Assembly: GCF_003334355.1 (NCBI RefSeq)
Contig: NZ_QOWP01000109.1
Length of the DNA: 396 bases
Reading direction: 5' to 3' (one strand)
Source: Escherichia coli
GTDB taxonomy: Bacteria; Pseudomonadota; Gammaproteobacteria; Enterobacterales; Enterobacteriaceae
Positions within the stretch are counted from its first letter, which is position 1. The number at the start of each line of letters is the position of its first letter. The notes beneath the pieces are model-generated. The model saw only the letters and a list, made by a program, of their open reading frames with translations, had not been told where the DNA came from and made no database searches. The position numbers and the translations under genes were made by a program. This document shows positions 249 through 350 of the stretch, piece by piece.

Positions 249-288
249 GTTTATATTGCCTCCATGCGAAGAAGGGACTACCATCCAA
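160..288 (-). CDS. Putative mok-like (modulator of killing) overlapping reading frame; start codon unresolved. The frame is open from 345 to the TGA at 162..160; TTG at 288..286 is the hok-proximal candidate start.
   Basis: This minus-strand frame puts a CAT codon at 249..247, one nucleotide 5' of the hokE ATG. That is the same register as mok relative to hok in plasmid R1 as I recall it (GGC CAU G). It stays open for 62 codons and terminates inside hokE, as mok does. No ATG or GTG is present in frame and no Shine-Dalgarno precedes either TTG, so whether it is translated here is uncertain. Confidence 0.25.
256..284 (+). promoter_or_regulatory. Candidate sigma70 promoter for the Sok antisense RNA: -35 TTGCCT (256..261), 17-bp spacer, -10 TACCAT (279..284)
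   Basis: Seen directly on the plus strand. The -35 matches TTGACA at 4 of 6 positions and the -10 matches TATAAT at 4 of 6, including positions 1, 2 and 6, with optimal 17-bp spacing. The -35 overlaps the complement of the hokE Shine-Dalgarno (cctcc 259..263), the arrangement expected for a sok promoter. Confidence 0.35.
259..263 (-). promoter_or_regulatory. Shine-Dalgarno sequence (GGAGG) for hokE
   Basis: Minus-strand GGAGG at 263..259, followed by a 10-nt spacer (CAATATAAAC) and the hokE ATG at 248. The spacing is at the long end of the functional range, in keeping with Hok translation being inefficient and regulated. Confidence 0.6.
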
Positions 289-291
289 ATT

Positions 292-350
292 GTTCGGGTT
301 TGGAGTGGCAGCCCCAGGGTGTACTGACCCCAAAAAGTTGGACAGTTAAA
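292..350 (+). ncRNA. sokE: Sok-type antisense RNA (antitoxin of the hok/sok type I system), antisense to the hokE mRNA leader; boundaries approximate.
   Basis: In hok/sok systems a roughly 60-nt antisense RNA is transcribed opposite the hok leader from a promoter overlapping the hok translation initiation region. A sigma70-like promoter on the plus strand (-35 TTGCCT 256..261, 17-bp spacer, -10 TACCAT 279..284) predicts a start near 291..293. This agrees with my recollection of the annotated E. coli K-12 sokE position relative to hokE. No canonical stem plus U-tract terminator is visible at the 3' end, so the 3' boundary is the least certain part. Confidence 0.4.

Follow-up and report, generated by a model that had tools for sequence, protein, structure and literature searches.

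Does the short stretch of DNA that carries the ribosome-binding site of the toxin gene hokE also carry, on its other strand, the promoter of the antitoxin RNA? The question was raised by an initial annotation of a 396-nt piece of Escherichia coli DNA (the window), which placed a σ70-like promoter opposite hokE and proposed that the toxin Shine-Dalgarno (SD) sequence and the antitoxin promoter are constrained to co-evolve. Our analysis confirmed the observation and supported its interpretation: positions 256-284 (+ strand) are very probably the σ70 promoter of sokE, which specifies the antisense antitoxin RNA of the hokE type I locus, with the start at or beside G292. The site is no new feature: it is the already known sokE promoter, in the standard hok/sok layout.

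The hokE gene call and its strand agree with the RefSeq annotation and with our comparative data. Window positions 1-320 and E. coli K-12 MG1655 have 319 of 320 bases the same (99.7%), and the minus strand encodes a small hydrophobic Hok-family toxin of 50 aa (ORF 248-96). This protein aligns with HokA-D and with the Hok of plasmid R1, with C14, T16, L28, E30 and E39 conserved; the NCBIfam Hok models match the ORF below their own cut-offs. The RefSeq annotation of MG1655 places hokE at 607836-607988 (+) and the sokE small RNA gene (b4835) at 607733-607792 (-), the latter mapping to window 292-351 on the + strand with G292 as its 5' end. An IS186/IS421 end begins 18 nt past the hokE stop codon and takes the place of the hokE 3' UTR, and an IS150 end interrupts sokE (Table 1).

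Several smaller features of the layout were recorded. The sole mismatch to MG1655 within positions 1-320, an A for C at position 88, is also a difference from strain 300709 and sits in the short remnant of the hokE 3' UTR; each of the 20 best complete-genome matches to the window (20/20) has one differing position. The part of the 3' UTR taken over by IS186 is the region of the fold-back element in hok mRNAs. The IS186 insertion 3' of hokE is also found in MG1655, and K-12 hokC likewise has IS186 downstream. The hokE frame is open over 96-383 (- strand), through the leader and into IS150, up to a TTG at 383. In MG1655 this frame begins at the mokE ATG, making mokE an in-frame N-terminal extension of HokE; an in-frame mok extension is likewise annotated for mokC/hokC, and the mok of hokB is out of frame.

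Table 1 Features of the window and invariant alignment columns among 21 hokE-type loci.
Feature	Position	Strand	Basis	Invariant columns and variation (21 loci)
IS186/IS421 end	1..77		MG1655 IS186B from 608007 maps to window 77	
hokE toxin gene, 50 aa, Hok family	96..248	-	ORF, ATG 248-246, stop 98-96; RefSeq name HokE	12/50 of hok third codon positions
SD-ATG spacer	249..255			1/7; length 3 to 7 nt
-35 hexamer TTGCCT, sokE promoter	256..261	+	4/6 consensus; top weight-matrix site	6/6; invariant in 21/21 loci
hokE Shine-Dalgarno GGAGG	259..263	-	sequence; 10 nt 5' of ATG	invariant
Promoter spacer, 17 nt	262..278	+		11/17; 17 nt in every locus, no indels
-10 hexamer TACCAT (TAnnAT)	279..284	+	4/6 consensus	4/6 (T1, A2, A5, T6); variants TACCAT, TAACAT, TACTAT
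Discriminator	285..291			1/7
SokE 5' tail	292..309			2/18
First 28 nt of sokE	292..319	+	G292, variable 5' tail, terminator hairpin 5' arm	
IS150 end (TGTACTG...)	320..396		MG1655 match stops at 320; known junction	
Remaining leader (background of the test)				37/89

TTGCCT-17-TACCAT matches 8 of the 12 consensus bases. A generic promoter and terminator scan of the window, which needed at least 9/12, returned no promoter and no terminator; as the site falls just below that rule, we scored it with an approximate σ70 weight matrix built for this analysis. With this matrix it is the best σ70-like site on either strand, as had been proposed, at 8.3 bits versus 6.35 for the next. It has the form of a σ70 promoter: the hexamers contain TTG and TAnnAT, their spacing lies within 16-18 nt, and TACCAT is followed after 7 nt by G292, within the 6-8 nt expected between a -10 and a start. 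Such a match is easily obtained, however: of 2,000 shuffled versions of the window with its dinucleotides preserved, 52% had a site at least as good. Judged on sequence only, the site is no better than chance and does not establish a promoter; it is position and conservation that raise it above chance.

The position of the site fits the annotation. The annotated sokE 5' end in MG1655 (607792, - strand) lies 44 nt upstream of the hokE ATG and maps to window 292, inside the interval of 291-293 that had been predicted for the start, and the gene leads away from hokE, as expected of an antisense RNA gene starting about 45-50 nt upstream of a hok ATG. The annotated ends may themselves derive from homology and promoter prediction, and so perhaps are not independent evidence. 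In intact loci a hairpin and U-rich tail are conserved 3' of 292, with 13 pairs, one of them compensatory, and the fold of K-12 SokE has z = -3.07. Intact SokE has the Sok architecture, with an unpaired and variable 5' tail of about 18 nt ahead of the hairpin, and the in-frame mokE ATG of MG1655 lies inside SokE, at the equivalent of window 347-345. Against the Rfam sok family RF01794, whose model is built in the hok-mRNA (hok-leader) orientation, the intact MG1655 leader scores 84.4 bits (gathering score 59). Rfam microRNA matches on the SokE hairpin were weak and were taken as chance.

Published data also point to this site. In Genomic SELEX with RpoD holoenzyme, Shimada et al. (2014) listed TTGCCT-17-TACCAT, directed leftward, in the ybdK/sokE spacer (PMC3946193), the hexamers having been assigned in silico inside a broad bound peak (PMC3946193). 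SokE was recovered as an sRNA in RelA RIP-seq of K-12 (PMC8060364) and has been targeted with dCas13a in K-12 (PMC10783499). In the papers examined we found no mapped sokE transcription start and no measurement of its promoter activity, the one start-site table read listing MG1655 + strand sites only. At the expected sokE coordinates there is no entry in the supplement of Kim 2012 (PMC3415461), nor in the part of the Cappable-seq table examined (PMC4782308), which lists + strand sites only whereas sokE is on the - strand. Among those Cappable-seq + strand sites none is listed at the expected hokE mRNA start (about 606,90x in U00096.2), as would be seen if the hokE promoter were very weak, though part of a table is no real test of it. 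That the promoter is active, where transcription starts in the strain of the window and what becomes of the transcript are inferred.

The conservation of the site was examined in 21 usable hokE-type loci, obtained by a single-protein search with HokE and limited to one genome per species, from the genera Escherichia, Citrobacter, Klebsiella, Phytobacter, Pluralibacter and Enterobacter. The leaders of these loci have pairwise identities of 72-100% (median 79%). Hexamers and spacing are conserved beyond their surroundings in these orthologues: invariant columns are enriched in the hexamers relative to the rest of the leader (10/12 versus 37/89; one-sided Fisher p = 0.007), and remain so when the three positions within the SD are left aside (nine positions, p = 0.04). 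When all σ70-like sites on both strands were ranked in 19 of the loci (950 nt each), the counterpart of the window site always came first, second or third.

The two strands meet at the SD. The claim that the -35 hexamer overlaps the complement of the hokE SD holds, the shared bases being the 3 nt at 259-261, and the promoter spacer carries the rest of the SD on its minus strand (262-263). The octamer GGAGGCAA, in which the SD is joined to the complement of TTG in the -35, does not vary among the 21 hokE-type loci, and the 3-7 nt directly 3' of it vary in both sequence and length; these are the data that bear out the idea of the same bases being used on both strands. An invariant CAA after GGAGG followed by a variable spacer would be hard to explain by ribosome binding, and is what a -35 TTG on the opposite strand would predict. 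As to co-evolution, the 21 loci show SD and promoter conserved jointly, not co-varying. The span originally assigned to the promoter, 249-293, takes in the SD-ATG spacer at 249-255, which lies outside the hexamers. That spacer contains a 4-nt insertion (252-255, TATA on the + strand), seen only in Escherichia, which sets the -35/SD block further from the hokE ATG: the SD-to-ATG distance becomes 10 nt, versus 6-7 nt in the other genera, and the frame relation of mok and hok is altered as well.

We compared this arrangement with those of known loci. MG1655 hokE/sokE is like the window in hexamers, start and the first 28 nt of SokE, and differs from it in having no IS150. R1-type plasmid hok has TTGCGC-17-TATCCT, then 7 nt, then the Sok 5' end (taken from a published in-vitro transcription primer), and K-12 hokB has TTGCCG-17-TAAGAT, then 7 nt, then the annotated sokB start; K-12 hokC has a -35 TTGACC in the same place, abutting the SD, with a poor -10. 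R1 hok/sok and hokE thus have in common an antisense σ70 promoter between the Sok start and the hok ATG whose -35 touches the hok SD, a 17-nt spacer and 7 nt from -10 to start, and the R1 Sok and SokE RNAs both have a 5' tail and a terminator hairpin and cover the mok start. From Sok start to hok ATG the distance is 44 nt in hokE, 48 in hokB, 49 in hokC and 50 in R1.

The loci differ in register. In R1 mRNA the SD is preceded by the complement of the -35 (GCGCAAGGAG), whereas in hokE mRNA it is followed by it; correspondingly, R1, hokB and hokC mRNAs read CAAGGAG and hokE mRNA reads GGAGGCAA, and the sokB and sokC promoters have the R1 register relative to the SD, unlike hokE. In R1, mok is out of frame with hok; it is out of frame in hokB as well and in frame in hokE. 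R1 Sok expression has been shown experimentally, point mutations in the Sok promoter abolishing Sok on Northern blots (PMC9841398), whereas the site at hokE is a predicted promoter. As the -35 lies on the other side of the SD between subfamilies, the exact overlap is not obligatory. A sok promoter inside the hok translation initiation region appears to be a trait of the family, with its exact register not fixed, a generalization that draws on four paralogues, since the single-protein search reached hokE-type loci only.

Could the hexamers be chance, with 256-284 conserved for the hokE side (the SD, mok coding and an mRNA hairpin that sequesters SD and AUG) and SokE made from elsewhere or not at all? 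The ease with which shuffled windows equal an 8/12 match, and the absence of the site from a 9/12 scan, would be in keeping with this, as would the conservation of the spacer as well as the hexamers (11/17 columns). So would the predicted local folds: in most orthologous mRNAs a CCCUUC or CUCUUC within the promoter spacer (270-276, - strand) pairs with GGAGG as a putative anti-SD, and in most orthologues the minimum free energy structure pairs the complement of the -10 with the start-codon region. These predictions suggest that the same bases may be under a third layer of constraint, that of an mRNA hairpin. The conserved block therefore has several possible readers (promoter, SD, mok frame and mRNA hairpin), so its conservation is not assignable to one function. 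Nevertheless, we consider chance hexamers very unlikely. Neither ribosome binding nor coding predicts that the invariant bases of the -10 should be exactly TAnnAT, or that an invariant CAA should stand beside GGAGG and be followed by a spacer of variable length. The frame of mok relative to hok differs among orthologues because of 3-4-nt indels, which makes a shared coding constraint unlikely. The 17-nt spacing and the 7 nt to the annotated start recur in hokB and R1 despite their differing sequences, and SokE RNA has been detected in K-12. Less credible still is an antisense RNA that starts near 264-265 from AGGGCA (229-234)-17-TATATT (252-257) on the + strand and also covers the hokE SD. It ranks second among + strand sites (6.35 bits), with a good -10, but there is virtually no -35 (-0.4 bits). 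The TATA within the -10 (252-255) is the Escherichia-only insertion, missing in the other 15 loci, and the start would misfit both the annotated sokE 5' end and the Sok layout of R1, hokB and hokC. We rejected it as the sok promoter.

With TTGCCT-17-TACCAT as the sokE promoter, the intact allele would work as follows. σ70 RNA polymerase would start at about 292 and run away from hokE, giving a 60-nt RNA with a single-stranded 5' tail of about 18 nt, a terminator hairpin and a U-rich end. Its sequence is the complement of the part of the hokE mRNA leader that spans the mokE start codon. If SokE acts as R1 Sok does, it would bind the processed hokE mRNA there, block mok translation and with it the coupled translation of hok, and mark the duplex for RNase III. 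Because SokE has to start some 45-50 nt ahead of the hok ATG, its promoter necessarily falls within the hok translation initiation region. For the hokE subfamily, the CAA that immediately follows GGAGG is the complement of the -35 TTG.

The allele in the window is not intact. IS150 is inserted after SokE nucleotide 28, with a 3-bp target duplication (GGG, 317-319) and the remaining 32 nt of sokE beyond the insertion; its transposase gene is co-directional with hokE. The insertion parts the two arms of the SokE terminator hairpin and displaces the mokE start and the hokE promoter. The Sok architecture found in intact alleles is accordingly represented in the window by the 5' arm up to 319 only, and a mok leader ORF start covered by Sok is missing from it, displaced by IS150. 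The 5' tac/ucb and 3' fbi elements of hok mRNA are absent too, the leader past 319 being IS150 and the 3' UTR IS186. Interruption of sokE lowers the Rfam sok score from 84.4 to 24.4 bits, below the 59 bits of RF01794. This residual match was rejected as evidence of Sok: besides being below threshold, it is on the hok-sense strand, and its first hairpin is aligned to an IS150 hairpin. That first hairpin of the sok model aligns to the reverse complement of the IS150 hairpin at 363-397.

The allele has been named sokE::IS150 and found in more than 400 natural isolates (PMC11551753). Searching 5,426 complete E. coli genomes, we detected the same IS150 junction in 552 and an uninterrupted sokE region in 4,955. 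Promoter and start are intact in sokE::IS150: compared with the uninterrupted K-12 allele, the promoter shows 100% identity and the first 28 SokE nucleotides are the same. As sokE is cut by IS150 at 320, normal 60-nt SokE is not possible from this promoter. The description of the site as an antitoxin promoter is thus right in so far as it is the known sokE promoter, and fails for this allele in that the product cannot be the normal 60-nt SokE. What the window retains is the hokE toxin ORF, its ribosome-binding site and an undamaged antitoxin promoter, with most of the normal regulatory RNA context gone. The anatomy of the site, its conservation, its fit to the annotation and the IS150 junction are established by this analysis.

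The promoter in sokE::IS150 probably drives a truncated or chimeric RNA. On the + strand the IS150 end contains a 15-pair hairpin (363-397) followed by TTTAATTT, a terminator-like arrangement that runs past the window edge (strain 300709, L002 2897-2907), and the fold of 292-396 has z = -3.3. The promoter would still fire, and the transcript would enter IS150 and halt at the hairpin with TTTAATTT. The first 28 nt of SokE would in this way be fused to antisense sequence from the final ~80 nt of IS150, in an RNA about 105-110 nt long. Such an RNA would be fully complementary to hokE read-through transcripts from the IS150 transposase gene and also complementary to the 3' end of the transposase mRNA, and through this complementarity it could still restrain hokE or influence IS150; we regard such a chimeric RNA with such a role as speculative and rather unlikely. 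If true, this might explain why sokE::IS150 and sokE+ strains have been found to differ in phenotype.

It is also conceivable, and in our view a serious if doubtful possibility, that the promoter is real but a relic in sokE::IS150, with nothing made from 256-292 being functional and the site free to decay. With IS150 at 320 and IS186 at 1-77, hokE has lost its promoter, mok start and 3' region, the Rfam sok score drops, and published reviews and studies (including PMC11551753) deem the K-12 chromosomal hok loci inactivated. The promoter, however, is identical to that of K-12 with sokE uninterrupted, and hokE keeps an intact ORF, towards which the IS150 transposase gene is read. Furthermore, replacing sokE::IS150 by sokE+ altered RecA-dependent viability in engineered strains (PMC11551753), so the state of the locus is not neutral.

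IS150-type ends turned up elsewhere at hok loci: in a locus from an Enterobacteriaceae species (L026 1-118), a few bases from the homologous site; inside the sok of an R1-type plasmid hok (L007 386-416); and, oppositely oriented, 33 nt before the ATG of K-12 hokA (L005 1134). An evolution experiment recovered repeated IS150 insertions beside hokC, hokE and mokB (PMC5419217). The recurrence of IS150 at hok loci may reflect target preference or selection.

An antitoxin promoter within the toxin translation initiation region is already established for hok/sok, and sokE is annotated in K-12. The comparison of 21 loci adds a clean case of two-strand reading, in which GGAGGCAA would serve as ribosome-binding site on one strand and carry the -35 TTG on the other. 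About one tenth of complete E. coli genomes, those of B and C strains among them, have an IS150-interrupted sokE with promoter and hokE intact; for annotation, this means that 'hokE/sokE' differs in meaning among laboratory strains.
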